Positions 4,146 to 31,910 are shown, counted from the stretch's first letter. The stretch: 32,000 nucleotides of DNA from Bdellovibrionales bacterium (GCA_963692945.1 OY843585.1:1350001-1382000), one strand, 5' to 3'. Numbers and translations: made by a program. Notes: generated by a model not told the origin, from the letters alone.

Positions 4146-4489
4146 CTTCCTTAAATTTTTTACTCCTTAGCTAGATAATAATAAAAACCACTCTTTTTCC
4201 AGAATTACAAAATAATATAACTCACTTTCCTTATCCTATTTTACATATCTTATTGTTTATCCCTACACAGTATTTCGGCCTATCAGATCTAAAAATTTGA
4301 CTGATTTTAGGGCTTTTTGACATAAAAATCCCTTTTTTTAAGCTTTTAACCGCCTGTTTTACTTTAAAAATAGACTTTATACACCATCCATTAGACCACT
4401 AAGAAACTATACAAAAAATAATTCTTGACAGATTTTACACCATAGCAAAAAAATAAACCTAAGAACCATTAAATTAAGGAGTGTAAAAA

Positions 4490-5098
4490 ATGGCTAAGAA
4501 AAAGGGGACTAAGAAGAAGTCCACTAAAAAGAAAGTAACTAAAAAGACAGTCACTAAAAAGAAAGGGACTAAGAAGAAGTCCACTAAAAAGAAAGTAACT
4601 AAAAAGAAGTCCACTAAGAAAAAGGGGACTAAGAAAGTAACTAAAAAGAAATCCACTAAGAAAAAGGGGACTAAGAAGAAAGCAACTAAAAAGAAGTCCA
4701 CTAAGAAAAAGGGGACTAAAAAGACAGTAACCAAAAAGAAAGGGACTAAGAAGAAAGCCACTCAAAAGACAGTAACCAAAAAGAAGTCCATTAAGAAAAC
4801 CGTTTCAAAAAAAGATTCCCCAAAAAAAGAAGCTCAATCCACTCCTGGTCTCATTGAAACGCCTCTAACAGAAAATCTCTCACCATCTAAAGTTTCACTG
4901 ACAAATCAAAAAGAAAAACTATCTGAAAATATGGATTTTATGGATGATGAGGGAACCTTTGAATCTCTTGGAAGTGAAAATGATTACTCTCCTGAAGATG
5001 ATGAGGAAAGTAGCAGTTTTGACAACCCGTTTGATGACGATCCATTTGATAGCCTAGAAGAAGAAAGCGATGATGAAGATGGAGACAATTTCTTTTGA
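4490..5098 (+). CDS. Lysine-repeat histone-H1-like (putative nucleoid-associated) protein with acidic C-terminal tail
   Basis: 202-aa ORF with strong SD (aaggag at 4476-4481). Roughly the first 105 aa are KKKxT pentapeptides. The last ~60 aa are D/E-rich (DNPFDDDPFDSLEEESDDEDGDNFF). A strong terminator follows. Confidence 0.7.
   Translation: MAKKKGTKKKSTKKKVTKKTVTKKKGTKKKSTKKKVTKKKSTKKKGTKKVTKKKSTKKKGTKKKATKKKSTKKKGTKKTVTKKKGTKKKATQKTVTKKKSIKKTVSKKDSPKKEAQSTPGLIETPLTENLSPSKVSLTNQKEKLSENMDFMDDEGTFESLGSENDYSPEDDEESSSFDNPFDDDPFDSLEEESDDEDGDNFF
4496..4798 (+). repeat. In-frame tandem 15-nt (aag-aar-aag-nnn-act) coding repeats, about 20 units
   Basis: Directly visible periodic aagaagaagtccact / aagaaaaaggggact / aaaaagaaagtaact units. 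They also generate the two antisense shadow ORFs at 4469-4765. Confidence 0.85.
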
Positions 5099-6112: not shown

Positions 6113-6229
6113 TATAAAACCTCCTTATTTTATATGTCTCAAAATGAGACAGTCTTTAAAATAACAGAATTTTTTTAATTCTCAATAAAAAAGCAAAAAA
6201 CGGATTAGAAAAAATATTTTAAAATACAA

Positions 6230-6252
6230 AAGTGTTCAGAAAGTTAACACTT
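6230..6252. promoter_or_regulatory. Palindromic operator/UAS-like site 1 (aAGTGTT-N9-AACACTt)
   Basis: Inverted repeat agtgtt (6231-6236) / aacact (6246-6251) in the divergent intergenic region between the AAA+ regulator gene and the xer-type gene. Confidence 0.45.
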
Positions 6253-6280
6253 GGTTTTAAAAATAAGTTTTAAAACTAAA

Positions 6281-6303
6281 AAGCGTTCAGAAAGTTAACA
6301 CTT
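6281..6303. promoter_or_regulatory. Palindromic operator/UAS-like site 2 (aAGCGTT-N9-AACACTt)
   Basis: Near-identical second copy (gttcagaaagttaacact shared) starting 51 bp after site 1. One arm mismatch (c for t). Confidence 0.45.
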
Positions 6304-6330: not shown

Positions 6331-7260
6331 ATGGAAAAAAAAGTTTCAAAAACTTTAAACCACCTCTATTTAATGTTTATTGATTATATGAAATATACAA
6401 AAAAAGTATCTCCTCATACTTTACGAGCCTATAAAAAAGACCTGAGAGATTTTTTTGACAGTTCTAAAAAATGGGAAGCATTAGACTCTCAATCTATAAA
6501 AACCATCTCACCTCTAAAAATACAAAATAAAAAAAACCTAGAACTCATTATAAAAGACTCTATTAAAAAAAGATCTCTCAAGTGGACAAAACTTGCTCCA
6601 GCAAGTAAAGGTCGGAAATTAGCAACCATCAGAAGTTTTATAAAATGGCTTTCAGAAAATCATTACATCCAAACAAATTTTGGTCATCTTTTTAAATCTC
6701 CAAAACAACCTGTAAAGATTCCTAATTTTTTATCTGTTGATGAAATTTTAGCAATTAACAATAAACTTCAACAAGAAAAGAATTCAAAAACTAGAGATAG
6801 AGATAGATCTTTATTTTTTCTACTCTACGGAGGAGGTTTGCGAGTAAGTGAAGCTTGTCATTTAAAAACTAAAAATATTGATTGGAACAATAGCACCATA
6901 AAGGTAAAAGGTAAGGGGAACAAAGAACGTCTTGTGGCCCTACCCAGTCAAGCCATCACCCATTTAAAACCTTTAAAAAATAATTTTCCTTATCTGTTTG
7001 GGAAAGCACCTCTATCTGAAAGAAAAGCTTATGATATTATAAGAAATTTAGGAAAAAAAACAGGCCTCTTAAAAGCCATTCATCCTCATGCTTTAAGACA
7101 TAGTTTTGCAACTCACCTATTATCTGGAGGGGCTGATTTAAGAGTCTTACAAGAATTACTAGGACATAAAACTCTTGTGGCAACACAAAAGTACACTCAC
7201 TTAGACCTTGCTCAACTTTCTCACACTTTAGAAAAGTTTCACCCTATTCATCAAAAATAA
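6331..7260 (+). CDS. Tyrosine site-specific recombinase, XerC/XerD family
   Basis: 309 aa. Catalytic-region motifs GGLRVSEACHL, HPHALRHSFATHLL, LLGHKTLVATQKYTH. N-terminal SAM-like core-binding domain pattern. Confidence 0.85.
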   Translation: MEKKVSKTLNHLYLMFIDYMKYTKKVSPHTLRAYKKDLRDFFDSSKKWEALDSQSIKTISPLKIQNKKNLELIIKDSIKKRSLKWTKLAPASKGRKLATIRSFIKWLSENHYIQTNFGHLFKSPKQPVKIPNFLSVDEILAINNKLQQEKNSKTRDRDRSLFFLLYGGGLRVSEACHLKTKNIDWNNSTIKVKGKGNKERLVALPSQAITHLKPLKNNFPYLFGKAPLSERKAYDIIRNLGKKTGLLKAIHPHALRHSFATHLLSGGADLRVLQELLGHKTLVATQKYTHLDLAQLSHTLEKFHPIHQK

Positions 7261-12753: not shown

Positions 12754-13326
12754 ATGAAATACCAAGTCACTTATGAATCAACGCCTAATCCTCAATCCTT
12801 GAAATTTATCCTCAACACTCCTATTTGCAATGAAACTTTAGAAATCACCGATAGAAATAAGGCCTCCCGATCTCCTTTAGCTGCAAAAATTCTTGGATTT
12901 CCTTGGGCAAAATCTGTTTTTTTAGGAGAAAATTTTATCACTATCACAAAAGAGGAATGGCTGGAATGGGATATGATCTCAGACCCCCTTGCTCAAATGA
13001 TAAAAGAGCATTTAGAAAAAGGAGGGGAAGTCCTTCTTGCAAAGCCAGAAAAAAAAGAAATGGATCACTCTATGAAAAATTCTACTACTGAAGAAAGTTC
13101 CGAAACAGTTAAAAAAATAAAAGAGATTTTAGAAAAAGAAATTCAACCAGCTGTGGCTATGGACGGAGGTTATATTGAATTTGTCTCTTATGAAAATAAG
13201 AAAGTCTATTTAAGCCTTCAAGGAGCTTGCTCAGGTTGTCCAAGTTCTAGCTACACTCTTAAAGAAGGAATTGAATCTCGTCTCAAACAAGACATTCCAG
13301 AAATAAGCGAAGTTGTTTCTGTATAA
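12754..13326 (+). CDS. Nfu/NifU-like Fe-S cluster assembly/carrier protein (Nfu_N + NifU C-terminal domain)
   Basis: 190 aa. N-terminal TPNPQSLKF motif. C-terminal GGYIEFVSY...LQGACSGCPSS CxxC motif. Confidence 0.85.
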   Translation: MKYQVTYESTPNPQSLKFILNTPICNETLEITDRNKASRSPLAAKILGFPWAKSVFLGENFITITKEEWLEWDMISDPLAQMIKEHLEKGGEVLLAKPEKKEMDHSMKNSTTEESSETVKKIKEILEKEIQPAVAMDGGYIEFVSYENKKVYLSLQGACSGCPSSSYTLKEGIESRLKQDIPEISEVVSV

Positions 13327-13468
13327 TCAAACAGTTCCTGAAATCTGTTTTGTTCTTAATTTCATAAGAATTGAATCTCGTCTCAAACAAGATATTCCAG
13401 AAATAAGCGAAGTTGTTTCTGTATAATCAAACCGTTCCTGAAATCTGTTTTGTTCTTAATTTCATAAG
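13269..13468 (+). repeat. Exact-length 100-bp tandem duplication (2 units, 2 mismatches) covering the nfu-like 3' end and its downstream hairpin
   Basis: Unit 1 is 13269-13368 and unit 2 is 13369-13468 (aattgaatctcgtctcaaacaaga[c/t]attccag...ttcataag). Differences are only c/t and a/c. Confidence 0.95.
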
Positions 13469-17609: not shown

Positions 17610-17689
17610 ATTTTTTTAGATTTCAGAATCTATCTCCTTTAAGTTGTTCCATATTTTTTTAAGACTTCAGAATCTATCTCCTTTAAGTT
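17603..17689 (-). repeat. 43/44-bp tandem duplication of the nuoE-stop / SD / nuoF-start junction
   Basis: Unit 1 (17603-17645) and unit 2 (17646-17689) both read gttccatattttttta(a)ga[t/c]ttcagaatctatctcctttaagtt. On the minus strand each unit carries aaggag and atggaac. Confidence 0.9.
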
Positions 17690-18207
17690 TTTGCAGTTAT
17701 TTTAGATTTTAAAACTTCTATGGCTCTATCCCCTTTAAGTTTTCCTAAATACTGGTCGTTCACTTGCATAACAGGAGCCTCATCACAAGCTCCTAAACAT
17801 TCTACTTTGGATACCGTCCAATTGCCATCAGCACTGATTTCATCTTCTTTCACATCAAAAAATTTACAAAGTCTGTCCATCAATTCTCTACTCCCTTTTA
17901 AAGCACAAGAAACATTACAACAAACTTGCACATGAAATTTACCAACAGGTTTTTTATTAAATAGAGTGTAAAACATAAGAACTTCATAGATATGAGTTTC
18001 AGGAATAGAGGTTTGTTCACTCAACCACGGAATAGATTCAGGAGGAATCCAACCCTTTTCTTTTTGTATTTGATACAAACAAGGAATAAGACAAGACAAT
18101 TTCACTTCGTAACGATTCATTTCTTTTTGAATAATAGAAACTCCTTCGGGAGAAAGAGAAAAAACTTTCTGATGAATTTTATTTTGTTTCATTTGCTCTT
18201 TACCCAT
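17683..18207 (-). CDS. nuoE: NADH-quinone oxidoreductase subunit E
   Basis: 174 aa. 2Fe-2S motifs CCNVSC and CLGACDEAP. Confidence 0.92.
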   Translation of the reverse strand: MGKEQMKQNKIHQKVFSLSPEGVSIIQKEMNRYEVKLSCLIPCLYQIQKEKGWIPPESIPWLSEQTSIPETHIYEVLMFYTLFNKKPVGKFHVQVCCNVSCALKGSRELMDRLCKFFDVKEDEISADGNWTVSKVECLGACDEAPVMQVNDQYLGKLKGDRAIEVLKSKITAKT

Positions 18208-20520: not shown

Positions 20521-21222
20521 ATGAGTCAAGAAAACTTAAACAAAGCCATAGAACTCACAAAAAAAAATCAACCCAATGTTGCTGTTGTTTTTGACTTGGA
20601 CTCCACTTTATTTTGCATGAAATATAGGACACAAGCCATTATTAAAGATTATATTAAAAAAGACCATCCTCCTGCTTTGAAAAAACAACTTCAAAATATT
20701 AAAGTCACAGAAAAAGATTGGTCTGTCAGAGAGATTCTCAAAAGACATCGTTTAGACCAAGAAAGAGAACTTTTAATTCAGCTAGAAACTTTTTGGAGAG
20801 ATTCTTTTTTCAGAAATGACTACCTTCATCATGACCAGCCCTATAATAAAAGCATTCAGTTTGTGAAGCATTTGGATCAATTAGGTGGAACTGTTTTTTA
20901 TTTAACAGCGAGAAACAAACTTCATATGGAAGAGGGAACTTTAAAGACTCTTCAAAAATACGATTGCCCCTTAAAAACAAAAGAACATCTTATATTGAAA
21001 TCCAATAAAGAAGAACAGGATGCTGAATACAAAAAAGAAAAGTTACAAAAGTTGTCTCAGCAATTTCAAACCATTTTGTTTTTTGAGAATGAACCCGTGG
21101 TTTTAAATCTCATAGACCAAACTTTACAAAACATTCATTTGTTTTGGATAGACAGCACTCACTCCAGACAACAAGAACCTCCGAAAAAAGCCTTACCTAT
21201 TTCTATAGAATATGAGTTTTGA
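20521..21222 (+). CDS. HAD-superfamily hydrolase
   Basis: 233 aa. Motif I VVFDLDSTLF (DxDxT). Later YLTARN and FFENEP segments fit HAD motifs II to IV. Confidence 0.65.
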   Translation: MSQENLNKAIELTKKNQPNVAVVFDLDSTLFCMKYRTQAIIKDYIKKDHPPALKKQLQNIKVTEKDWSVREILKRHRLDQERELLIQLETFWRDSFFRNDYLHHDQPYNKSIQFVKHLDQLGGTVFYLTARNKLHMEEGTLKTLQKYDCPLKTKEHLILKSNKEEQDAEYKKEKLQKLSQQFQTILFFENEPVVLNLIDQTLQNIHLFWIDSTHSRQQEPPKKALPISIEYEF

Positions 21223-21345
21223 AATTCTCCTATTGGATTTTTGAAGTTCTCCTATTGGATTTTTGAAATTCTCCTATATGAGTTTTGAAATTCATCTCTT
21301 GGATTTTTGAAGTTCTCCTATATGAGTTTTGAAATTCCTATTGAT
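21126..21345 (+). repeat. Left direct repeat of the hip-like insert (last 97 bp of the HAD gene + 5 bp), continuing into an array of ~22-bp tandem units
   Basis: 21126-21227 equals 23174-23275 (102 bp, 1 mismatch). 21211-21345 is about 6 units of tat(a)tgagttttgaaattc / tattggatttttgaagttctcc. Confidence 0.9.
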
Positions 21346-21356
21346 AGTTTAAGTAA

Positions 21357-21761
21357 TCAATTTTTAGAGTTTTTAGAGTTATATTTTTTTTCATACTCTT
21401 TGTCAGTAGAAAATATATAGCTAGATAAAGGACTTTTTTCACTTAACCTGTTCAAAATTTCTATAAAATCTTGTTGTGGCAAAGATTTATAAATCTCACT
21501 TATATTGGGTCTATTTTTATCAGGCAATCTTGCACGAAAAAATGAGTGAAGAGATGTTGCTTCATGATCTTCCAATCCTTCTATTTTTCGATCACCTTTG
21601 GTATATTTAAAAATATATTTACCGGTTTTGTAAGTTAATTCTCCAACTAAAACAATAGATTTTCCATTAGTCGCTTCTTTATCATAAAAATATACAAATA
21701 AAGTCTTTTCAGAAGACTTATTTATAAATGAATTCAACAAATTATTTTTCTTTTCAGACAT
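21357..21761 (-). CDS. HipS-like protein (stand-alone HipA N-terminal subdomain homologue)
   Basis: 134 aa. VLVGELTYKTGKYIFKYT and SFFRARLPD resemble the E. coli HipA N-terminus (RVGELT...HTFKY...FFDNLLPD, recalled from memory). Its start is 1 nt after the stop of the upstream kinase gene. Confidence 0.6.
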   Translation of the reverse strand: MSEKKNNLLNSFINKSSEKTLFVYFYDKEATNGKSIVLVGELTYKTGKYIFKYTKGDRKIEGLEDHEATSLHSFFRARLPDKNRPNISEIYKSLPQQDFIEILNRLSEKSPLSSYIFSTDKEYEKKYNSKNSKN

Positions 21762-21762
21762 T

Positions 21763-23145
21763 TTATAAACCTAATATTTTATTCTTTCTTATCTTAAGTA
21801 CTTGACTAATTCTAACAATTCTGATGGGAGAAATCAAGTTTCTATATTTTTTTGTCAAATTTTCAATATCCAATAGATTTAACCTATGAACGAAATGCTT
21901 AAAAAGAACTGGATTGTTTTTTCTTATATACTGAACCACAGAAAAATGACTTTCATTAAGATTATTTTGAACAGTTAAAAGAGGTTTTGAATTTTCTACA
22001 TACTTTAATAGATTTTTTCTATCTTCATATTTAAAAATTAACTCATAAATATTCTCATTCCAAAACAAACCATGTCCTGTATCAAATAACGGTGTAAAAT
22101 ATATATCTTTAGTTTCATTTGATTGTTTTTTTAAAACTAATCCCCAATTCTCATGATGCCTATCTTGATGTCCCAATAAACAATCAACTAATAACATAAG
22201 ATGAAAATTATCCATATTTTTCTTTCTTTTCATTAAAGTAATAGATTGTTTTTTAAGATACTTTTCTATTGATTCTTCTATTTTTTCTATGGTATAGAAC
22301 TGTCTTTGCTCTTTTCTATGCTTTGGTGGAGTTTCCTCACCTGAATCTTGAAAAATTTCTAGTCCATGAATCAATCTATAATCATATTTTGAATTTTTAA
22401 AAAAAGTAAATATCGTAGAGCAGAGAGATATCCGATCTTTATATATTACTAACCAACATTTTGCAGCTTTTGTAAAGCAACTCGCAATATCAGTCATTAT
22501 AATTTCTGTAACAAGTTCTTTGAATCCATGATTATTCCTATTTTCTGTTTCTTTTGGAAATTTAATAAGAAACTTTGCATCTCTTGATCTAAGAATAAAC
22601 TTCTCAGCTTCCCCTAGAAGTGATTCACTTTCTTTATCTAAAAATTTTAAATGATTTTTATCTTTAATTTTTTTTAAAACATGAGAGCCTGCAAACTCTA
22701 AATATAACCATTTCTGATGGTTCCTTATAATTCTTACAGCTGATGATGAAATTTCATTCTGTTTAATTTTTTCTTTTATCTTTTTCTCTTTTTTTTCTAT
22801 AATTTTTAATTGTTCTTTACTACCTTCATTTTTTGAAACTTCTTCTCTTTCTATTTTTAGAGTTTTTAACTCTTTTTGAAATTTATCATTACAAACTAAA
22901 CAAGAGTAGTTAGGTATAGCAACTTTTTCTTGAAATTTATAATTAGCAATTGCATCTTTTATATGTGAAGACACATGATCTAAAATAAGCACATTTGTTT
23001 TTGTATGACGAACTCTTGCTTCACATCTATTACATTTTATATCTCTAATCATAATATATTTATATTGTATCATTAAGAATCTTTTTTTGTAATTTCTCTT
23101 GCAATAAACTTTCCATGTTTTGAATCCAGCAACAAAATGAGCCAT
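21763..23145 (-). CDS. HipA/HipT-like serine/threonine kinase core with an N-terminal CxxC...CxxC (zinc-ribbon-like) + coiled-coil extension
   Basis: 460 aa. LLGHQDRHHENWG...TPLFDTGHG matches the HipA_C catalytic pattern (HipA: GATDGHAKNFS...TPFYD, recalled from memory). Candidate Gly-rich loop EFAGSHVLKK near aa 150. Cys38/41 and Cys82/85. K/E-rich helix at aa 95-135. The true start may be an internal Met. Confidence 0.7.
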   Translation of the reverse strand: MAHFVAGFKTWKVYCKRNYKKRFLMIQYKYIMIRDIKCNRCEARVRHTKTNVLILDHVSSHIKDAIANYKFQEKVAIPNYSCLVCNDKFQKELKTLKIEREEVSKNEGSKEQLKIIEKKEKKIKEKIKQNEISSSAVRIIRNHQKWLYLEFAGSHVLKKIKDKNHLKFLDKESESLLGEAEKFILRSRDAKFLIKFPKETENRNNHGFKELVTEIIMTDIASCFTKAAKCWLVIYKDRISLCSTIFTFFKNSKYDYRLIHGLEIFQDSGEETPPKHRKEQRQFYTIEKIEESIEKYLKKQSITLMKRKKNMDNFHLMLLVDCLLGHQDRHHENWGLVLKKQSNETKDIYFTPLFDTGHGLFWNENIYELIFKYEDRKNLLKYVENSKPLLTVQNNLNESHFSVVQYIRKNNPVLFKHFVHRLNLLDIENLTKKYRNLISPIRIVRISQVLKIRKNKILGL

Positions 23146-23173: not shown

Positions 23174-23322
23174 ACAAAACATTCATTTGTTTTGGATAGA
23201 CAGCACTCACTCCAGACAACAAGAACCTCCAAAAAAAGCCTTACCTATTTCTATAGAATATGAGTTTTGAAATTCATCTCTTGGATTTTTGAAGTTCTCC
23301 TATATGAGTTTTGAAATTCTAC
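23174..23322 (+). repeat. Right direct repeat of the hip-like insert (orphan copy of the HAD 3' end + ~3 of the 22-bp units)
   Basis: See the left repeat. 23259-23319 also matches 21256-21327. Confidence 0.9.
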
Positions 23323-23365
23323 ATTGGATTGAAAATAAAAGATTCTTACATCTATTAAATATAAA

Positions 23366-23394
23366 TTGACAATCTCTCCTAACTTGAATATATT
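23366..23394 (+). promoter_or_regulatory. Sigma-70-type promoter of secreted paralogue 1 (TTGACA-N17-TATATT)
   Basis: ttgaca at 23366-23371, 17-bp spacer, tatatt at 23389-23394, about 30 nt upstream of the SD aaaggaga and the ATG at 23427. Conserved exactly in the duplicate. Confidence 0.55.
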
Positions 23395-23426
23395 CAAAAC
23401 AAAGTATTCTTTTTTTCCTAAAGGAG

Positions 23427-23921
23427 ATGATTATGCAAAAAATTATTTTTTTTCTAATTGTTATTTTGTTAGCACCACTCTCAACGGCTAGTGACAAACA
23501 AACATCAATGACTAATGAACTAACTTTAATTCGGCAAGCTCGTGTTCTTATATATATATCACCTATTACTTTTTCTAGCAGAACTGTTAATCTAAATTCA
23601 TGCTCCAATGAAGCTCCTGACATACATATCCAGCTTATCAAAACTCATAAAGGTTGGAAGAAAACATTAGCTAAGCTAGGTCTTGCACATAATTTTTTTC
23701 AGTTCAAACTCTCTGCCAACCCACAAACTGTAAAAGAAGTCGTTTGGGAATTTTCAAAAGAACAATATTTTGGAAGAGAAAATATTGAGGTAAGTGAAAA
23801 AAATGTATTGGTGAATGTATGGCAAAAATTTTCTCCAACTGTTTATCTCGTTTGTAACGATGATACATTACATACGATTGAGCTCTTGATTGACCCAGAA
23901 GAATACATTACATACGATTGA
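23427..23921 (+). CDS. Secreted protein of unknown function, paralogue 1
   Basis: 164 aa. Signal peptide MIMQKIIFFLIVILLAPLSTASD. Good SD. 87% identical to paralogue 2. Confidence 0.75.
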   Translation: MIMQKIIFFLIVILLAPLSTASDKQTSMTNELTLIRQARVLIYISPITFSSRTVNLNSCSNEAPDIHIQLIKTHKGWKKTLAKLGLAHNFFQFKLSANPQTVKEVVWEFSKEQYFGRENIEVSEKNVLVNVWQKFSPTVYLVCNDDTLHTIELLIDPEEYITYD

Positions 23922-24004
23922 GCTCTGGATTAACTCAATTGAATATAAACTTATACGCAATATTGGATTTAAAATAAAAAGTTCTTACATCTATTAAATA
24001 TAAA

Positions 24005-24033
24005 TTGACAATCTCTCCTAACTTGAATATATT
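24005..24033 (+). promoter_or_regulatory. Sigma-70-type promoter of secreted paralogue 2 (TTGACA-N17-TATATT)
   Basis: Duplicate of the 23366-23394 promoter: ttgaca at 24005-24010 and tatatt at 24028-24033. Confidence 0.55.
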
Positions 24034-24065
24034 CAACACAAAGTATTCTTTATTTCCTAAAGGAG

Positions 24066-24560
24066 ATGATTATCCAAAAAATTATTTTTTTTCTAATTGT
24101 TATTTTGTTAGCACCACTCTCAACGGCTAGTGACAAACAAACATCAATGACGAATGAACTAACTTTAATTCAGCAATCTCGCTATCTTATATATACATCA
24201 CTTATTACTTTTCCTAGAAGAACTGTTAATCTAAATTCATGCTCCAATGAAGCTCCTGACATACATATCCAGCTTATCAAAACCCATAAAGGTTGGAAGA
24301 AAGCATTATCTAAGGTAGGTCTTTTATATAATTTTTTTCAGTTCAAACTCTCTGCCAACCCACAAACTGTAAAAGAAGTCGTTTGGGAATTTTCAAAAGA
24401 ACAATATTTTGGAAGAGAAAATGTTGAGGTAAGTGAAAAAAATGTATTGGTGAATGTATGGCAAAAATTTTTTACAACTGTTTATCTCGTTTGTAACGAT
24501 GATACAAAACATACGATTGAGCTCTTGATTGACCCAGAAGAACATATTATACAACAATAG
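24066..24560 (+). CDS. Secreted protein of unknown function, paralogue 2
   Basis: 164 aa with the same signal peptide. Tandem duplicate of 23427-23921. Confidence 0.75.
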   Translation: MIIQKIIFFLIVILLAPLSTASDKQTSMTNELTLIQQSRYLIYTSLITFPRRTVNLNSCSNEAPDIHIQLIKTHKGWKKALSKVGLLYNFFQFKLSANPQTVKEVVWEFSKEQYFGRENVEVSEKNVLVNVWQKFFTTVYLVCNDDTKHTIELLIDPEEHIIQQ

Positions 24561-24841: not shown

Positions 24842-25168
24842 TTATTTCCTATCAATTTCATCTAAAAGAATTTCATTGATAACACTTTGATAACCTATCT
24901 TTCTTTTTTTAGCTTCTTTTTTAACAAAAGAGACAACTTGAGGATGAAGACGAATAGAGGTAGGTTTATATTTCTCAGCTTTTGGTTTTAAAGGCCTTCC
25001 TCTTAAAGGTCTTTTCTTTTTTAACTTCTTTTCTATAGCCCTATGAGCAGACATCACTTCCGCTTTTGTTATCTTCCTTGCATTTTTAAACAGGAAGATT
25101 TTGATTTTAGCCTTAGATTTTGCTTTCTTCATACGTCCTCCTTTCTTTTTGATTCGCTTTTCTGGCAC
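24842..25168 (-). CDS. brnA: BrnA-family (CopG/RHH-type) antitoxin
   Basis: 108 aa. LRGRPLKPKAEKYKPTSIRLHPQVVSFVKKEAKKRKIGYQSVINEILL fits the BrnA pattern (GRP...K..vSIRL...vl..fk....gYQt.iN). The track start is GTG at 25168; an ATG at 25132 is an alternative. Confidence 0.8.
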   Translation of the reverse strand: MPEKRIKKKGGRMKKAKSKAKIKIFLFKNARKITKAEVMSAHRAIEKKLKKKRPLRGRPLKPKAEKYKPTSIRLHPQVVSFVKKEAKKRKIGYQSVINEILLDEIDRK

Positions 25169-25399
25169 TAATTATCCTATAAATACGACCCTTTGATCTT
25201 TTTGTAAAAATAACAACTAATACACCCACATCAGATAAGCCAATTAACCATTCTCTGTATTCATTAATAGAATGTTTTTCATCTTTGGATATAAGAGCGT
25301 GGGGATCATCAAAAGCTGTGATAGCCTCTTCAAAAGATATTTTATGTTTCCTTTCATTTTGTTTTGTTTTGATTTATTATCATCCCAATCAAATTTCCT
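25113..25399 (-). pseudogene. brnT: brnT (DUF497 ribonuclease toxin) remnant: frameshifted and lacking an ATG
   Basis: My own minus-strand translation. Frame a gives (R)KFDWDDNKSKQNK. Frame b gives ...ERKHKISFEEAITAFDDPHALISKDEKHSINEYREWLIGLSDVGVLVVIFTKRSKGRIYRIISARKANQKERRTYEESKI*. The junction is (caaaa)x3 (plus-strand ttttg x3 at 25357-25371). The expected ATG position reads AGG (25399-25397). Frame b has a TAA at 25376-25374. Confidence 0.75.
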
Positions 25400-25434: not shown

Positions 25435-25545
25435 GATCATTCTGGCATTTATTTCATCAAGTAAAATCTTCAATCTTTTTTGCAATAAAAAATTACCAAT
25501 ATTTAGCATCCTGTTGAGTGGTTTTTAGAAGATCTCAAATGAGCC

Positions 25546-25722
25546 TCATGATTTTTTAAGTTTTTTTAGCCTAGTTAAAAAGGCTTTTTTTTTAAAGCAG
25601 AGGAACTCCTCACCTTTTTTTAAACTTCTTTGCTTGAATGTATTTCTTAGCTTTTGAAAAACTCTTGTAACTTTTTTGGTTAAATTTGAAAGCCCAAAGC
25701 CCAATGCTTTCGTTTTTTTAAG
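25546..25722 (+). repeat. Modular intergenic repeat, copy D (modules Y then X)
   Basis: Y (25558-25678) has hairpin agcct/aggct + T9 and near-palindrome gaggaactcctc + T7. X (25679-25719) has hairpin gaaagc/gctttc + T7, with loop ccaaagcccaat. It overlaps the dinD stop. Confidence 0.85.
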
Positions 25723-26569
25723 AATCTTTTTTATTAAAATCACTATATTTTTTAAAAGATTTTTTCTTATCAGATTTAAGTTTTCTTTCTATTTTTTTAA
25801 CATCTTCTTCTGGTGCCAAGCTTTCAGGTGCAATGCCTCGTTCAATTAAAGTTTTCCTAACGCTTTGATTGTTGGTGATATGTTCATTTGATATTTCCTT
25901 TTCGTTTTCCATCTGATTAGTTTTTGCATTAAAAATTGTAATTTCTGTAGCAAAATCCTTGGCTTTTAAAATAAGAGTTGGAGCAAAATCTGATAGAGCT
26001 CGCCCTTTAGGAACTCTCCACTTTTGTTTCATTTGTTCTGTTGTATAGCTAAACAAAGCTTTATCTCCTTTGGAGCGAATGACTCCAAAGTTTTTATCAC
26101 TTCCTGTTTGTTGAAAAATAACACTTGAAAGCTCTCTTTCTGTGTCTGCTAGTTTTTTTCGAGCTGACACCCTTTCTGATTCTAGTAATTTTTGTTGAAT
26201 GATTTCAAATTTTCTCGTTTGAACAGCAAAATAAGTTTGAGCAAAGGCAATTTTTTCTTTACGAGAATCTCCATTTTGAGCAATAAGATAGCAGGCATAG
26301 CGAGTAAGCATAAGCTCATCTATTGTCTTTTCAGCTCCTTTAGGCATTTTGATCGTTTTCCCGACGTCGGTAAAATGATCGGAGACTTGATGATCTGATA
26401 GCTCACAAGCTGTTTTTGCCCTAGAAATAACATCTTTAAAATTATCCCATTTTTCATAACCTAATAGATGCTGTAAATCACGAGCTAGCCAAAATTCCAC
26501 TCCATTTTCTGTCTGGTTGGCATGAGACTCAAAGTCTTTTGTTAAGGATTGGATAAGTTCGCTTTTCAT
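25718..26569 (-). CDS. dinD: DNA-damage-inducible protein D (DinD) family protein
   Basis: 283 aa. FWLARDLQHLLGYEKWDNFKDVISRAKTACE, LTRYACYLIAQNGD and AQTYFAVQTRK match my memory of E. coli DinD (FWSARELAPLLDYRDWRNF..., LSRYACYLVVQNGD, GQTYFAIQTRR). SD taaggag. Confidence 0.7.
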   Translation of the reverse strand: MKSELIQSLTKDFESHANQTENGVEFWLARDLQHLLGYEKWDNFKDVISRAKTACELSDHQVSDHFTDVGKTIKMPKGAEKTIDELMLTRYACYLIAQNGDSRKEKIAFAQTYFAVQTRKFEIIQQKLLESERVSARKKLADTERELSSVIFQQTGSDKNFGVIRSKGDKALFSYTTEQMKQKWRVPKGRALSDFAPTLILKAKDFATEITIFNAKTNQMENEKEISNEHITNNQSVRKTLIERGIAPESLAPEEDVKKIERKLKSDKKKSFKKYSDFNKKDS

Positions 26570-26806
26570 AAAACTCCTTAATGTTTTATCCTAGGTCACT
26601 TATTTTATATTAAAAATATATTAAAAAGCAATTTATGGGTTCTAGAAAAAAGTAAGAATCCATTTTAGAGGGTTTTTAGAGAGAATTTAAGAAGTATGTC
26701 TATACCCCCCACAAGCTGAAAAAGCCCTATAAATTTAAAAGGTTTTAAGTAGAAAATTTTTGATAGCTAGATGAAAGAAAATCACAAAGTATTGTAAAAT
26801 ATCTCT

Positions 26807-27056
26807 GCATTATTTTTGCAGTATTGTGCAGAGTGATCTTTTCGGAAATCACGAGAATTTGAATGAAATTGAGTGAAACTGCAGGAAAATCAAAGAGCCA
26901 ACTTTGTGGTTGATTTTTGTTGAATTTGAAAGCCCAATGCTTTCGTTTTTTTGTCACTCAAGAGGGGACAAATTCCTCATATTTTTTTAAGTTTTTTTAG
27001 CCTAGTTAAAAAGGCTTTTTTTTTAAAGTAGAGGAACTCCTCACCTTTTTTTAAAT
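26807..27056 (+). repeat. Modular intergenic repeat, copy A (W-X-spacer-Y)
   Basis: W at 26807-26918. X at 26919-26952 (hairpin gaaagc 26928-33 / gctttc 26939-44 + T7). 35-nt spacer. Y at 26988-27056 (agcct 26999-27003 / aggct 27012-16 + T8, then gaggaactcctc + T7). Confidence 0.9.
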
Positions 27057-27200
27057 CATTAATATCAGGTTGTAGCGTAATGGCTTCCTAAACGAACATT
27101 AATAGAGTGTGTACAGGTTGTTTTTATACCAGAAGTTTGAATCAAGAAAGTTTATTTTATGCCGATAAGAATATTAATGAAGCAAGCTTAAGGAGTTTTT

Positions 27201-28505
27201 ATGTTCTTTTTTTTAGGTATTTCAATTTTTACTATGCTTTTTCTTAGAAGGCACAATTTAATAAAAAACCACAAACTTATTCTAAATAAAACATTAAAAA
27301 AAACTGATCCTAAAAAAGTTAAAAACCTTAGTTTAAACCTTAAGAAAACATTATTTTTTTCAGGAGCTTTAGGAGCTGATAGTTTATTTAACTATCTTTA
27401 TCAACTAAGTAAAATTGATTCAAATTTCTTAGATGCAATTAAAAGTGTTCATGGAAACTCTCAAAACTTAGATAGTAGTTTAGATGTTATAAACTATGTT
27501 AAAACAGATATTATTCATGATGGTCTTCAATTACATGAAGTTCATAAATATAAAGGCTATGTAGGAGAAAAGGCACATTTTGATTATCTAAGGGCAGAAG
27601 GTCATGAAGTTGAAGTTCCTGATACTCCAAATCAAGAAGGTTATGATGCTATTGTAGATGGTGAAAAAGTTAATATAAAAGTTAGTGATAGCGAAGATTA
27701 CATTCAAAACCATTTAGATGAAAATCTTGATATACCAGTTCATACAGGATCTGAACTAGATCAAATAGATAATGTAGTAGGTTTTGATCATCTATCAAAT
27801 ACTACTATAGAATCTGCAACTGAAGCTGGATTTGAAGACATTGATTCTTTTGGAAAAACAGGAATTCCTTTTATAACTATTGGTTTATCAGGTTACCGTA
27901 ATTTTAAAAAAGTAAAAAATGGAGACAAGGATGCTCTAACAGGTTTAGAACATACAGCAACAGATGTTGTAGGCTTGATAGGTGGATTAGCTATTGGAAA
28001 AGCAGTTATACCAATCCCAATTGTAGGTGCTGTTATTGGAGGATTAGTTGGAAAAAAAATTGGAGACTTATTCAAAGGCAGGCATTTTAGAAAGGCTGAC
28101 AATGAATTCAAAAATCTATGCATATCTATGGCAAATAAATTTCCAAAAAGAGTAGAAAGTATTTCTAATAAGGCTTATGAAATTAATAAGAGCAGGAAAT
28201 CAAAGATCAAAAAACAAGCTGATCAAAATATTTTAATACAATTTTTTAATCCAAACCTTAAAACTACATTTATTAAACTAGCCACAAAGCAAAATGATAA
28301 AGAAGAAAAGCAATTTATCTCTAAGCTAGAAGATATAAAACAACAGATAGAATCTACTGAAGATGATAAGTTATTTAACTTAGGGTATAAGTTATCTCAA
28401 ACAAGAGAATCTTTATTTTTAGGAGATTCTGAGCTTACAAAATTATCTAAAAAAATTAATCGCAAAATCCAAATTGTTGAGAAAGAAAAACGAAAAGCAA
28501 GTTAA
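27201..28505 (+). CDS. Membrane protein of unknown function: N-terminal TM, PD-(D/E)xK-like segment, glycine-zipper TM hairpin, C-terminal coiled coil
   Basis: 434 aa with SD aaggag at 27190-95. GYVGEKAHFDYLRAEGHEVEVPDTPNQEGYDAIVDGEKVNIKVS resembles Mrr/NERD-type nuclease cores. VVGLIGGLAIGKAVIPIPIVGAVIGGLVGKKIG is a glycine zipper. K/E-rich C-terminus. Confidence 0.7.
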   Translation: MFFFLGISIFTMLFLRRHNLIKNHKLILNKTLKKTDPKKVKNLSLNLKKTLFFSGALGADSLFNYLYQLSKIDSNFLDAIKSVHGNSQNLDSSLDVINYVKTDIIHDGLQLHEVHKYKGYVGEKAHFDYLRAEGHEVEVPDTPNQEGYDAIVDGEKVNIKVSDSEDYIQNHLDENLDIPVHTGSELDQIDNVVGFDHLSNTTIESATEAGFEDIDSFGKTGIPFITIGLSGYRNFKKVKNGDKDALTGLEHTATDVVGLIGGLAIGKAVIPIPIVGAVIGGLVGKKIGDLFKGRHFRKADNEFKNLCISMANKFPKRVESISNKAYEINKSRKSKIKKQADQNILIQFFNPNLKTTFIKLATKQNDKEEKQFISKLEDIKQQIESTEDDKLFNLGYKLSQTRESLFLGDSELTKLSKKINRKIQIVEKEKRKAS

Positions 28506-28830
28506 GTTAAAGTTTTTTAATTACTTGATTGTATAAAGAGAAAAAGGGATTCCTTTTTTCTAAGTTAAATCGTGATAGATGTTAAAAAGATCTTCTTTTG
28601 ATAACGAGTGATCGTCTAGAAAAGATTTTGAAGTATTGTACATCTTATCTAAATAGTAGCTATGGTTTTAAAATACTCTTTTTTAAAAAGATTAAAAATC
28701 CCTTTTCCTAGAAGATGAAAAAATGTGTCTATAAACATTTGAAACTTTTTTCCTTGATTTTTTGAGTTTTATTTTGAAGTAAATTAAAAAGAATACAAAG
28801 AAGAGATCCTAAAAAAGTTACAATAACATT

Positions 28831-29008
28831 GCATTATTTTTGCAGTGATTGTGCAGAGTGATTTTTTCGGAAATCACGAGAATTTGAATGAAATTGAAGG
28901 AAAACTAAAAGCTAATATCGTGGTTGATTTTTGTTGAATTTGAAAGCTCAAAACTCAAAGCCCAATGCCCAATGCCCAATGCCCAATGCCCAATGCTTTC
29001 GTTTTTTT
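28831..29008 (+). repeat. Modular intergenic repeat, copy B (W-X, X loop expanded)
   Basis: W at 28831-28932. X at 28933-29008, with gcccaat x5 (28960-28994) inside the hairpin loop, then gctttc + T7. Confidence 0.9.
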
Positions 29009-29072
29009 AAGTAGATACTTTGAAATATTGTTTTGGTTTACTTTAGCAAGATGTTATATTTATATATAATTT

Positions 29073-29417
29073 ATGAGTGAAAAAATAAATCAATTGATAG
29101 TAAGTGTTTTAACTGTGATAGTAGCATCCTTTGTTTCAGCATTTGTGGCTATACAAATTGCTAAATACCAAATTGATAAACAAATTGAAATTAAAAAAAA
29201 AGAATTTCAAATTATGGGAAGAGAGTTTGACGTTATAGATAAATTAATTAAAGACAAACAAGATATAGATCAAAAAATAAACTTAATTTCAAATAATATA
29301 CTCGGCATTTTGACAGGAAGAAATGAAGGAAACCTCAAACTTCTAAGAGCAAAGGCATCTCAACTTAAAGAGAGAAAAATCAGAATCATAGAAGAGATTA
29401 AGTATCGAAGAAAATGA
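29073..29417 (+). CDS. Small single-pass membrane protein with coiled-coil tail, unknown function
   Basis: 114 aa. TM segment LIVSVLTVIVASFVSAFVAIQIA, then a K/E/Q/I-rich helical region. Convergent with the RT gene, 100 bp apart. Confidence 0.55.
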   Translation: MSEKINQLIVSVLTVIVASFVSAFVAIQIAKYQIDKQIEIKKKEFQIMGREFDVIDKLIKDKQDIDQKINLISNNILGILTGRNEGNLKLLRAKASQLKERKIRIIEEIKYRRK

Positions 29418-29517
29418 GATTTCTTCTATGATTCTGATTATTTATGATGATTCAATTTATTATTGAGATATAGAAAATTTATTAAAGAAGAGATGAAGGA
29501 GAATTTTTTAAATCCAA

Positions 29518-31284
29518 TCATAAGATCTCTTTTTTCTTTTTAATAAATTTTCTATAAAATAATGGATAAAATTTACGAAACTCTAAGGGAGTTTCCTTTT
29601 GATAGTTTGTAATATACTTATCATGTAATCGATTCCAAAATTCCCTGTCTGAATTTTTTATAAAACATAAATATCCTTGGATATGTCGAATTTTCTGCTG
29701 ATGCTTGTTTTTTTCATAATCTCTGAGAAGTTTTTTTATATAATTTTTTCTACTTCTTCCTAAAGATATTTTTCCTTCTGGAGTCAGATACAAGCCAGTT
29801 ATTTTTCTTTGACCTTTTTTTGACATATGAAAAGTTTTTTTGTTATTGATTTTTAAATTCAAAGGATAAGGTATTTCTTTTAAAAGATCTTTCACTTTTT
29901 GTTCTAAGACATTTAATTGGTTAGATTTAGAATATGAAAACGTAAGATCATCTCCATATCTTGAATAAGTTATACCTAAATTTTCACTATATTTGAATAT
30001 ATTTTCATCGAAGGAATAAAGAAGAATATTTGATATAACTGGAGAAGTACTAGATCCTATAGGTAGAGGATAATCTTCATTTTTCAAAGAATTATCTTTG
30101 AAAACTATATCACAAATCAACTTTTTATATCCTTTAAAATGATTTTTACTTTCTAAATATTTTAAGAAGTCTGATCTTTTTATAGATGAAAAAAAATTCT
30201 TAAAATCTAATTTTAAAAGAAACTGATTTTTTTGATGTCGTTCTATATTTCTTCTTATACTGTTTTTTTTGATATAAGCTGTTGCAGATGTATGAACAGG
30301 AAAAATATGGTTACAATCTAATATTCTTGTTTTTAATATTTTTTGTAAACTTTTTAGATTCTCATCTGGTTCTTTATAATGCTCTCTTTGAGAATATGAA
30401 AAGCAGTCTGGACTTATAAAATTTTTGATATATTTTAATAGGATTAAATCACTTTCTTCCTCTCTTTCTGTTTGAATAATAGTATGATGTAAAATACTCA
30501 TTTTATTTAATATAGAGCTATCACTTCTTATCAAGCTAAGGTATTTTGTTTGATTGAAATCAGTTTCTTCAACTATAAATTTAAAAGCTTTCAGCATTTT
30601 TAGATGGTTATCTAATTTATCTATGTATTTAGTTAGTTTAGTATCTTTTTTAACCTCTTGATATATTTCCTCTTTAGTTTTCCATTCACATAAAATCCCT
30701 ATAAGAAAAAAATATAGAGATGTTAAATTATTTGTATTTATTTCTATGTTATAATCTGCTTTATTTCTAAAATTAAAAATTTCTTTAAAAACTTTTTCTT
30801 TATGGGATTCATTGCTTTGATCATAGTAAATAATTCTTTCTTTTTCTTTAAGAAATATATCTTCTAATATTGCTTTTTTTATAAATGAGTTTTTTTTACA
30901 ATGTTTTTCATCTACTATAATAAGTAATTTCTTTTTTAACTTAGGATTGCAGAAAAAAGCTCCAGTTTCCACCAGTGCTCCATGACCTTCTAAAAAAATG
31001 GGAATAACTGAAGATAACTCTGCAATTTCCATCTCAAATTCAAATAAGTTATTATATCCAGCATTTTCTTCTTTTAAACATTTTTCCCATAAAGTTTCAA
31101 TTTGCTCTGCTAGGATAATTCTTTTGTCAGAAAAAATATTCTCATCGTCTTTGTTGGTAATGAAAACATCTTTATATGTAGATTTTACATGCTTAAGAAA
31201 TGCATTTCTCATAGAATCTGAACAATTAGAACCGCATAAAAATGCAGTATTAGGCAATCTACCTAAGATATGTTTTTTATTCAT
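29518..31284 (-). CDS. Retron-type reverse transcriptase (C-terminal ~300 aa) fused to a ~290-aa N-terminal Rossmann-like + wHTH-like region
   Basis: 588 aa. RT motifs: SIRRNIERH (retron NAxxH-like), LLKLDFKNFFSSI (motif 1/2), LPIGSSTSPVISNILL (motif 3/4), YSRYGDDLTFS (YxDD), QRKITGLYLTPEGKISLGR (retron VTG-like). The N-terminus has AFLCGSN and PIFLEGHGALVETGAF. Confidence 0.85.
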   Translation of the reverse strand: MNKKHILGRLPNTAFLCGSNCSDSMRNAFLKHVKSTYKDVFITNKDDENIFSDKRIILAEQIETLWEKCLKEENAGYNNLFEFEMEIAELSSVIPIFLEGHGALVETGAFFCNPKLKKKLLIIVDEKHCKKNSFIKKAILEDIFLKEKERIIYYDQSNESHKEKVFKEIFNFRNKADYNIEINTNNLTSLYFFLIGILCEWKTKEEIYQEVKKDTKLTKYIDKLDNHLKMLKAFKFIVEETDFNQTKYLSLIRSDSSILNKMSILHHTIIQTEREEESDLILLKYIKNFISPDCFSYSQREHYKEPDENLKSLQKILKTRILDCNHIFPVHTSATAYIKKNSIRRNIERHQKNQFLLKLDFKNFFSSIKRSDFLKYLESKNHFKGYKKLICDIVFKDNSLKNEDYPLPIGSSTSPVISNILLYSFDENIFKYSENLGITYSRYGDDLTFSYSKSNQLNVLEQKVKDLLKEIPYPLNLKINNKKTFHMSKKGQRKITGLYLTPEGKISLGRSRKNYIKKLLRDYEKNKHQQKIRHIQGYLCFIKNSDREFWNRLHDKYITNYQKETPLEFRKFYPLFYRKFIKKKKEIL

Positions 31285-31297
31285 TTACAAACTCTAT

Positions 31298-31327
31298 AAA
31301 AAATATAAAACCCCTCTTAATAAGGGG
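31298..31327 (-). terminator. Terminator/attenuator-like hairpin immediately upstream of the RT start codon
   Basis: Minus strand reads cccct-tattaag-agggg (31327-31311), followed by ttttatatttttt (31310-31298). The RT ATG is at 31284. Confidence 0.4.
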
Positions 31328-31590
31328 AAGTATATTGAAAACATGAAGTATTTAAAACTGTTTGCAGATATATTCTACCAACACATTAAAAATACTTTAT
31401 TACAAAATACCTGTCAAGATTAGTCGGAAAGTGACAAAAAAGTCAATGACCCTGTGATTGTATCTCTATAGCGATACCTTCTTTTAGATTTTTTTGCTAT
31501 TCTCTATCTTTAATAGATGTTGAAAGAAAGAAGGAAGTCCAAAAATTCCCCTTTTTTTTAATTCATATTTCTAATAGTTATAAGATGATT
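31306..31590 (-). ncRNA. Candidate RT-associated non-coding RNA (retron msr-msd-like) region, boundaries uncertain
   Basis: ~350 nt without a credible ORF upstream of a retron-type RT. Promoter-like TTGAAA-N17-TATGTT (31626-31598, minus). 8-nt inverted pair aaggggaa (31553-31546) / ttcccctt (31329-31322) as a possible a1/a2. These matches are not statistically compelling in AT-rich DNA. Confidence 0.25.
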
Positions 31591-31634
31591 AAAAAAGAAC
31601 ATAAAAAAGGCTCTAATAAGTTTCAAAGAATATT

Positions 31635-31910
31635 GCGTTAATTTTTGCAGTGATTGTGCAGTGATTAGACAGTGATTTTTTCGGAAATCACGAGATTTTG
31701 AATGAAATTGAAGGAAACTGGAGGAAAATCAAAGAGCCAGCTTTGTGGCTGGTTTTGTTGAATTTGAAAGCCCAATGCTTTCGTTTTTTTAAGTTTTTTT
31801 AGGCTAGTTAAAAAGGCTTTTTTTTAAAGCAGAGGAACTCCTCTCTATTTTTAAACTTCTTTGCTTGGATATATTTTTTAGCTTTTAAAAAAGTTATAAA
31901 AGTTTTTCAA
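31635..31910 (+). repeat. Modular intergenic repeat, copy C (W-X-Y)
   Basis: W at 31635-31756 (three cagtgatt boxes). X at 31757-31790 (gaaagc 31766-71 / gctttc 31777-82 + T7). Y at 31791 to about 31910; its first hairpin is broken by aggct in place of agcct. Confidence 0.9.

Follow-up and report, generated by a model that had tools for sequence, protein, structure and literature searches.

In enterobacteria, bacterial interspersed mosaic elements (BIMEs) are combinations of repetitive extragenic palindromic (REP) sequences, or palindromic units (PUs), and in pneumococci the BOX elements follow the pattern boxA-boxB(n)-boxC. Sibling small RNAs (sRNAs) encoded in nearby copies include LhrC1-5 of Listeria and PrrF1/2 of Pseudomonas, and the ToxI RNA consists of tandem ~34-36-nt repeats ahead of a terminator and an endoribonuclease toxin gene. 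Tyrosine-recombinase sites can combine a core with accessory sites, as attI does with DR1 and DR2. In type III toxin-antitoxin (ToxIN-like) loci, a repeat RNA is followed by a terminator and then by the toxin gene (PMC4147584). Sedentary chromosomal integrons are described as having species-specific attC repeats, such as VCR and VXR (PMC13638679), and a preprint reports that integron cassettes can carry phage-defence genes (bioRxiv 10.64898/2026.03.17.712381). Defence islands are known mosaics, but outside integrons and mobile-element hotspots, how defence systems are added and kept from interfering with one another is poorly understood. Here, we describe a repeat in a 32,000-nt stretch of DNA from a Bdellovibrionales bacterium (GCA_963692945.1 OY843585.1:1350001-1382000); this whole stretch is referred to as the window, and all coordinates are positions within it. 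Each junction among three or four unrelated defence cassettes in the window bears the same co-oriented repeat.

We tentatively read this element, with a probability of roughly 0.4, as a lineage-specific mosaic junction repeat that may have been copied by recombination as cassettes accumulated and may now act as a one-way transcription stop. We infer both its spread and its insulating role from the sequence.

A co-oriented mosaic repeat at cassette boundaries

The repeat is present in four copies, D, A, B and C in window order, all on the plus strand and all assembled from the shared modules W, X, S, Y1/Y2 and Z (Table 1). Four such copies would not be expected by chance. Module make-up differs by copy (S'-Y-Z-X, W-X-S-Y, W-X and W-X-Y-Z, respectively), which supports the above reading, and the joints between modules fall at a T-run followed by AAG or AAA. 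One copy lies at each of four boundaries between functionally distinct units, and none lies elsewhere. With module probes allowing up to three mismatches and shuffles as the control, matches occur only within 25.5-32 kb: three for the W core (shuffle mean 0.22), four for X (0.00) and three for Y1 (0.00). The covariance model built for the element, R1, also matches copy D weakly (25583-25722, 25.5 bits). Outside the modules, the flanks of the copies share no further homology.

Copies of W, a 115-base segment, agree at 93-94% of aligned positions, and their alignments have 12-47 gap columns. For Y, identity is 96% in the pair D and A and 92% in the pair A and C; Y-Z of D matches that of C at 88%. 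In its 5' half, W has two or three direct CAGTGATT boxes leading into a 7-6-7 palindrome (GTGATTT-N6-AAATCAC), which as RNA would form an 8-bp hairpin with a UUCG loop. Copy C has three boxes, the extra one adding 11 nt; copy B has two; and in copy A the boxes are degenerate, with spacing of 11-13 nt overall. A purine motif, AGGAAAA, is present in all three W copies. The heptamer in the loop of X occurs seven times in B, twice in D (25694-25707) and once each in A and C; this slippage-prone tract should weaken termination in copy B, where the promoter-like site of the 114-aa (amino acid) gene follows ~50 nt downstream. The Y1 stem of copy C has a C>G change that weakens it. Taken with the insertions and deletions, the changes in box number and the loop expansion in B, this break in the stem suggests that the exact sequence is loosely constrained.

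Placement follows the genes closely. The T-run and AAG of X in copy D overlap the stop codon of dinD (25718-25720), and this copy precedes no plus-strand gene. Copy A lies between the divergent dinD and 434-aa genes, 145 nt upstream of the latter. Copy B begins 325 nt past the stop of the 434-aa gene and ends about 61-65 nt before the 114-aa open reading frame (ORF). The left edge of copy C is 8 nt from the -35 element of a minus-strand promoter-like site, TTGAAA-17-TATGTT (31626-31598), which precedes a candidate retron noncoding RNA (ncRNA) and the reverse transcriptase (RT) gene. The gap within cassette 3, between the 114-aa and RT genes, has its own bidirectional hairpin and no repeat.

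The repeat is noncoding. A 70-aa minus-strand ORF lies over copy A, but stops interrupt its counterparts in B and C, and a plus-strand ORF inside W spans 16-19 codons in A and C and 6 codons in B. Among 5.8 billion proteins there is no homologue of the 70-aa ORF, nor of an 816-residue chimera made from the stop-free six-frame segments of all four copies.

Much of this agrees with an initial annotation of the locus, which had reported four co-oriented copies of a W-X-Y element at these positions, 145 and about 65 nt from the downstream ORFs, and had described W-X as noncoding on the strength of the disrupted minus-strand ORF. It had also described the copies as bracketing dinD, the 434-aa protein, and the 114-aa protein with the RT, and thus as partitioning the island into cassettes; gene calls and family matches agree, and within the window the copies do lie at unit boundaries only. 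Its hairpins, namely the GTGATTTT/GAAATCAC palindrome, the X hairpin with T7 and the two hairpin and T-run units of Y, are all present. The W-X-Y scheme stands, with some refinements: copy D, given as Y-X, is S'-Y-Z-X and includes a remnant of the hairpin that forms the spacer of copy A, copy C extends to W-X-Y-Z, and the X loop of copy B is expanded. Identity between W copies had been put at 85-90%, lower than the measured value, and the CAGTGATT boxes ascribed to W as a whole are clear in C and B but not in A.

Predicted terminator stacks and a proposed role

Every module except the 5' half of W and Z is a hairpin and T-run unit. H2 (the last part of W), X, S, Y1 and Y2 share one layout, in which a short hairpin rich in G+C leads into T7-9 and AAG or AAA, and in a consensus scan all five score as terminator-like on the plus strand only. 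These units match the definition of intrinsic (Rho-independent) terminators and are predicted to be such. Between 25.2 and 32 kb there are 16 terminator-like sites against 2.1 expected; the two remaining parts of the window have 14 (5.5 expected) and 6 (5.2 expected). Of the 16, 11 lie within repeats, nine of them on the plus strand. The nearest strong plus-strand promoter-like site upstream of copy D, TTGACA-17-TATATT at 24005, is followed by no plus-strand terminator before D.

The repeat would thus be, for the most part, a stack of two to five units of the Rho-independent terminator type. As cassettes accumulated, recombination between stretches of repeat that the copies have in common may have duplicated them, leaving module borders at the T-run/AAG, and the stack would halt plus-strand transcription that enters a cassette from its neighbour or from an antisense start. 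Such insulation would matter for any cassette whose effector is potentially toxic. As for the 5' half of W, it may bind a protein or be transcribed, and it would travel with the stack. The presence in the island of a second module bracketed by direct repeats, a HipA-like pair between copies of a 147-bp repeat, also supports this reading.

Several points weigh against it. With four copies in the 32-kb window of one genome, a local junction repeat and a sample of a genome-wide family cannot be told apart. Termination is predicted from a pattern match only, and at copies A and C the only plus-strand transcription to be stopped would be antisense to dinD or the RT gene, so that the need for four or five stacked terminators is not obvious. 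No recombination intermediate or empty site was seen. The periodic boxes, palindrome and sharp common 5' edge of W are superfluous for a mere passenger, and the boxes and palindrome are not explained by a terminator stack. As no more than a local insulator, or the scar of a duplication, the repeat would offer a tidy example of the transcriptional isolation of toxic cassettes; if W is instead a recombination site or a regulatory RNA, it would hint at a new way to assemble or control defence islands in a little-studied, small-genome Bdellovibrionales lineage.

The island and its genes

The window is chromosomal DNA from an uncultured member of the Bdellovibrionales and is AT-rich (~31% G+C). Core genes occupy 1-21.2 kb and include a PP2C-type phosphatase, a sigma-54 activator, an xerC/D-like gene, recG, lysS, fba, nuoG-F-E-CD-B and a HAD phosphatase. 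The NuoCD protein shares 88% identity with its counterpart in MAG_seacave_16 and 79-84% with those of several complete Bdellovibrionales chromosomes from metagenome-assembled genomes (MAGs). Accessory DNA runs from ~21.3 kb to the window end and holds the HipA-like pair, a duplicated 164-aa gene, BrnA/BrnT, dinD, the 434-aa and 114-aa genes and a retron St85-family gene. None of the island genes from 21.3 kb on lies beside nuoB-HAD in the closest relative (L001, NuoCD 88% identical), and across 80 syntenic loci of relatives the one counterpart found is a protein in L003, 25% identical to the 434-aa protein. In IMG/VR, dinD and the RT have no close relatives.

Table 1. Modules, repeat copies and cassette genes of the island, in window coordinates
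Feature	Position	Strand	Remarks
Copy D, S' remnant-Y1-Y2-Z-X	25534-25722	+	No W except its last ~15 nt before X
Copy A, W-X-S-Y1-Y2	26806-27055	+	Covariance model, 182.9 bits
Copy B, W-X, X loop expanded	28830-29011	+	153 bits; W with 11-nt deletion, degenerate H2
Copy C, W-X-Y1-Y2-Z	31634-31910	+	176.1 bits; three CAGTGATT boxes
W core in C	31648-31691	+	Three direct CAGTGATT boxes (31648, 31659, 31670; 11-nt spacing) into H1
H1, GTGATTTT-UUCG-GAAATCAC	C 31672-31691; A 26833-26852; B 28858-28877	+	
H2, 10-bp hairpin then U-rich tail	C 31733-31756; A 26894-26917; B 28908-28932	+	End of W; weak in B
X, GAAAGC-CCAAT-GCTTTC hairpin + G + T7	A 26928-26952; D 25688-25719; B 28942-29008; C 31766-31790	+	
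S, GAGGGG-ACAAA-TTCCTC hairpin + T-run	A 26962-26989; D 25534-25560	+	Remnant in D
Y = Y1 (AGCCT..AGGCT + T9) + Y2 (AGAGGAACTCCTC + T7)	A 26999-27052; D 25568-25621; C 31801-31852	+	
Z, AT-rich tail (~60 nt)	D 25625-25676; C 31857-31910	+	Common to D and C, 83% identical
Heptamer tract in X loop of B	28946-28994	+	GCTCAAA, ACTCAAA, GCCCAAT x5
Cassette 1: dinD, DNA-damage-inducible protein D	25718-26569	-	NF008573 above cut-off; PADLOC candidate PDC-S13; ATG 26569
Cassette 2: 434-aa glycine-zipper protein	27201-28505	+	Partial matches PDC-M09B, PDC-M72B; ATG 27201
Cassette 3a: 114-aa protein	29073-29417	+	Hydrophobic N-terminus; promoter-like TTAGCA-16-TATAAT 29043-29070
Cassette 3b: retron St85-family (type II-A) 588-aa fusion	29518-31284	-	NDT-like effector (residues 9-260) + RT (residues 304-561)
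Candidate retron ncRNA (tentative)	31317-31556	-	a1 AAGGGGAA / a2 TTCCCCTT enclose small hairpins and one long hairpin

The retron effector is NDT-like, of the STM3845 family, and is fused with the RT in one protein. In the candidate ncRNA, a1 and a2 lie at 31556-31546 and 31329-31319; its limits are uncertain because it contains a further strong promoter-like sequence, TTGACA-17-TATTTT (31417-31389). The G+C content of cassettes 1, 2 and 3 is 0.32, 0.28 and 0.25, and that of the repeats is 0.30-0.36, values that fit separate acquisition of the cassettes on a common scaffold.

Other duplications are present in and around the island. The 147-bp direct repeat (21126-21272 and 23174-23320; 95% identical) flanks the HipA-like PDC-M03A/B pair (21357-23145); it takes in the last ~97 bp of the HAD phosphatase gene and 22-bp tandem repeats of the ATTGGATTTTTGAAGTTCTCCT type, and it resembles a scar left where DNA was inserted into the HAD gene at its 3' end. 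A 639-bp tandem duplication (23323-24261, 95% identical) has given rise to two genes for 164-aa signal-peptide proteins (23427-23921 and 24066-24560), each preceded by a strong plus-strand promoter-like TTGACA-17-TATATT (23366 and 24005); these predicted secreted proteins have no family match. On the minus strand at 24842-25357, the BrnA antitoxin gene is intact and the BrnT-like toxin gene is frameshifted into a C-terminal part (25113-25229) and an N-terminal part (25244-25357).

Among the core genes, a 100-bp tandem duplication (13268-13467, 98% identical) spans the 3' end of a 190-aa ORF and the sequence downstream. Two intergenic regions hold short repeats: a 51-nt unit present twice, with an AAGTGTT..AACACTT hairpin, upstream of the xerC/D-like gene (6202-6303), and a 44-nt unit present three times between nuoE and nuoF (17611-17750). 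A lysine-rich ORF (4490-5098) has a 15-nt periodic repeat (4425-4844), and a similar K-rich 15/18-nt repeat occurs in L001 (4594-4800). A cumulative GC-skew minimum near 26 kb was considered as a replication origin and rejected, as gene orientation over a short span explains the skew.

Alternative explanations

The copies may instead be sibling sRNA genes in which W-X specifies a transcript of ~115-150 nt running from the W edge to H2 or X, with Y and Z as back-up terminators and a defence-linked regulatory RNA as the product. This role, among those put forward in the initial annotation, is possible if somewhat unlikely. A, B and C have a sharp 5' boundary in common, and hexamers resembling a -10 element end 5 nt upstream of W, TAAAAT in A (ATGAAA-18-TAAAAT, 26771-26800) and TACAAT in B. 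However, neither has a TTGACA-like -35, which genuine promoters in the window do have, and the aligned -10 of C is poor. Terminators follow directly and on the plus strand only, the region is noncoding, and the AGGAAAA motif is retained in every W; yet copy B is missing 11 nt and its terminator loop is ~50 nt long, and copy D has terminators but no W. As for structure, the UUCG-looped H1 keeps seven of its eight pairs invariant, with one C.A mismatch in A, and pairing in H2 is kept through one double-sided change (G-C/A-U) and three single-sided ones. In a hand-drawn W structure 92.6% of cells pair, but its single double-sided change, that in H2, is matched by 171 of 500 shuffles, so covariation does not exceed the background, and no covariation argument is possible because there are only three sequences. 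Folding of W against shuffles is also inconsistent, with z scores of -0.7 in A, -0.1 in B and -2.5 in C, and both strands score alike. No Rfam family matches, and in RNAduplex comparisons with all 28 gene starts no neighbouring target stands out and the duplexes are unrealistic. Separately, a sigma-54 promoter at the W edge (TTGCAT-N5-TTGCAG) was rejected, since the GG doublet is missing and, in C, the spacing differs by one.

A generic dispersed mosaic intergenic repeat, of the REP/BIME, BOX or miniature inverted-repeat transposable element (MITE) kind, would occupy many loci and make the four copies a local sample. The modular, variable composition recalls BIME and BOX elements, the modules are hairpin-rich, the internal repeats are prone to slippage, and the genome has many other small local duplications. 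We nevertheless consider this unlikely, as all four copies share one orientation and occur at cassette boundaries only, and no copy is present in the ~25 kb of the window outside the cluster, 21 kb of which is core genes with more than a dozen intergenic gaps. Searches for related sequence, which took in 596 Gb of genomes as well as metagenomes, viruses, plasmids and phages, returned nothing. Exact and IUPAC patterns of the W core were absent from 185,579 species genomes and from JGI metagenomes, a gapped Y pattern had no match in metagenomes, and the W palindrome, X and Y had none in IMG/VR; blastn in 'distant' mode found no match in plasmids or phages, and blastn together with covariance model R1 found no copy in 81 related loci (1.39 Mb). 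Nor do the islands of relatives (L001-L006 and L081) hold analogous junction repeats. Among the 5.8 billion proteins, which include those of the host genome, no called ORF derives from such sequence, although this is weak evidence. Dispersal beside core genes, which the initial annotation had named as counting against a cassette-linked element, was not seen in 25 kb of the window or in ~1.4 Mb of related loci, a sample short of the whole genome.

The copies also lack terminal inverted repeats and target-site duplications. An origin as a MITE or insertion sequence (IS) was rejected, as end complementarity is no better than in shuffles in four of four copies and no 3-10-mer is common to both flanks of any copy. 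Rfam gave no match at gathering thresholds; the best permissive overlaps were RyhB, at 21.6 bits against a gathering score of 55, and the S15 leader, at 15.9 bits against 39.5, each with E>1. The initial annotation had not recognised the element, and the Rfam search and the lack of IS-end features agree with it. Judged by these searches, the repeat belongs to no described family.

Cassette capture by a system other than an integron would cast the repeats as recombination sites, with a recombinase binding the 7-6-7 palindrome and half-site boxes, or the X end, and cassettes inserted and excised as circles. The recombinase would be encoded beyond the window, and the terminator stack of each unit would isolate newly captured, possibly toxic genes. 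Co-oriented repeats do bracket unrelated cassettes regardless of gene orientation, and packing is tight, with the dinD stop overlapping X and the W of copy C abutting the retron promoter. The palindrome followed by two or three direct half-sites at 11-13 nt may resemble a tyrosine-recombinase core with accessory sites, but the boxes are degenerate in A and the right-hand ends vary, falling after X, Y or Z. GTTRRRY lies at the same place in all four copies despite sequence difference (GTTGAAT/GTTAAAT); it is, however, expected by chance 0.62 times per kb and has no RYYYAAC partner core. Integron cassettes can carry phage-defence genes, as the above preprint reports, but here the cassettes have their own promoters, each copy has several short hairpins rather than one long attC-type hairpin, and 21-32 kb holds no recombinase, the sole one in the window being an Xer-type gene 19 kb away among core genes (6331-7260). 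Taken together, this makes a recombination site quite improbable.

Barely credible is a 5' leader or attenuator of the plus-strand cassette genes, starting at or before W with read-through of X/Y under induction, as had also been suggested initially: A and B do sit 145 and about 61-65 nt upstream of plus-strand ORFs, CAGTGATT boxes could pair alternatively with AAATCAC and a 16-19-codon ORF starts inside W in A and C, but that ORF has only 6 codons in B, one leader would have to serve two unrelated genes, D precedes no plus-strand gene, and promoter-like sequence lies downstream of the stack for both genes, namely TTAGCA-16-TATAAT in the gap from B to the 114-aa ORF and, past Y and ~45 nt upstream of the 434-aa ORF, the motif TGCCGATAAGA, which is shared with a W-less homologue (P0002, in L081).

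That homologue (L081, 9855-11314) is the sole close one of the 434-aa protein, at 56% identity, and lies directly after tuf and tRNA-Trp without W-like sequence. It marks one edge of a stretch of functionally uncharacterised genes in an ENA contig of 33% G+C, and its position suggests a tRNA-linked island.

Three further identities were considered, the first two of which were rejected. The variable and template repeats (TR/VR) of a diversity-generating retroelement do not fit, as the substitution spectrum is mixed, all copies are noncoding and the RT is of the retron type. W-X is not the retron msr-msd ncRNA, as it has no end complementarity and a separate candidate exists at 31317-31556 (minus strand). 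That the copies are retro-copies of a transcript, given their common 5' end, 3' ends at different terminators and adjacent RT, is speculation for which there is no support, and D has no W.

Comparison with known systems

The array resembles the attC arrays of sedentary chromosomal integrons in that co-oriented repeats of ~120 nt and ~90% identity split an accessory array into cassettes, and such arrays may hold defence genes. In contrast to those arrays, each copy here has one GTTRRRY (R') and none has RYYYAAC (R''), so there is no R''/R' inverted core pair and an integron attC site was rejected. The single long imperfect hairpin of attC is replaced by several separate short hairpins with no end-to-end pairing. 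The cassettes are not promoterless, co-oriented and of a single ORF: gene orientations are -, +, +, -, the genes have their own promoters, some cassettes have two genes, and one comprises two genes and a candidate ncRNA. The 3' extent of the repeat also varies, and within the window no integron integrase lies beside the array, as 21-32 kb has no recombinase and the Xer-type gene at 6331-7260 sits among core genes. The strictly integron-like site offered initially is disfavoured on the same grounds.

With the LhrC and PrrF families, the locus shares several homologous noncoding units of ~100-150 nt in one region, each with an intrinsic terminator. Here, however, there is no conserved promoter or seed region, internal deletions vary, D has no RNA body, and the units are known from sequence alone. 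The likeness to ToxIN is one of layout: in a defence setting, a terminator comes after short direct repeats and ahead of a gene whose product may be toxic. A ToxI-like RNA was rejected, as the boxes are 8 nt long at 11-13-nt spacing and the downstream proteins match no toxin family; the promoter-like sites here lie after the terminators, and the genes that follow encode a glycine-zipper protein and a small one whose N-terminus is hydrophobic.

Closest are BIME and BOX elements, which are also noncoding, lie between genes, draw on a small repertoire of hairpin modules whose number and combination vary, show slippage-type internal variation and can act on termination or mRNA ends. Such elements are dispersed around the chromosome in tens to hundreds of copies, some of them beside core genes. 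The repeat is likewise a mosaic of a few hairpin modules in varying combinations. It has no sequence similarity to either, and its modules carry T-runs, making them full units of the terminator type; its four copies lie in one 6.4-kb accessory stretch, in one orientation and at cassette boundaries only. The repeat is thus most economically placed in the class of mosaic, hairpin-rich intergenic repeats, within which it is unusual in being strictly junctional and co-oriented in a defence island.

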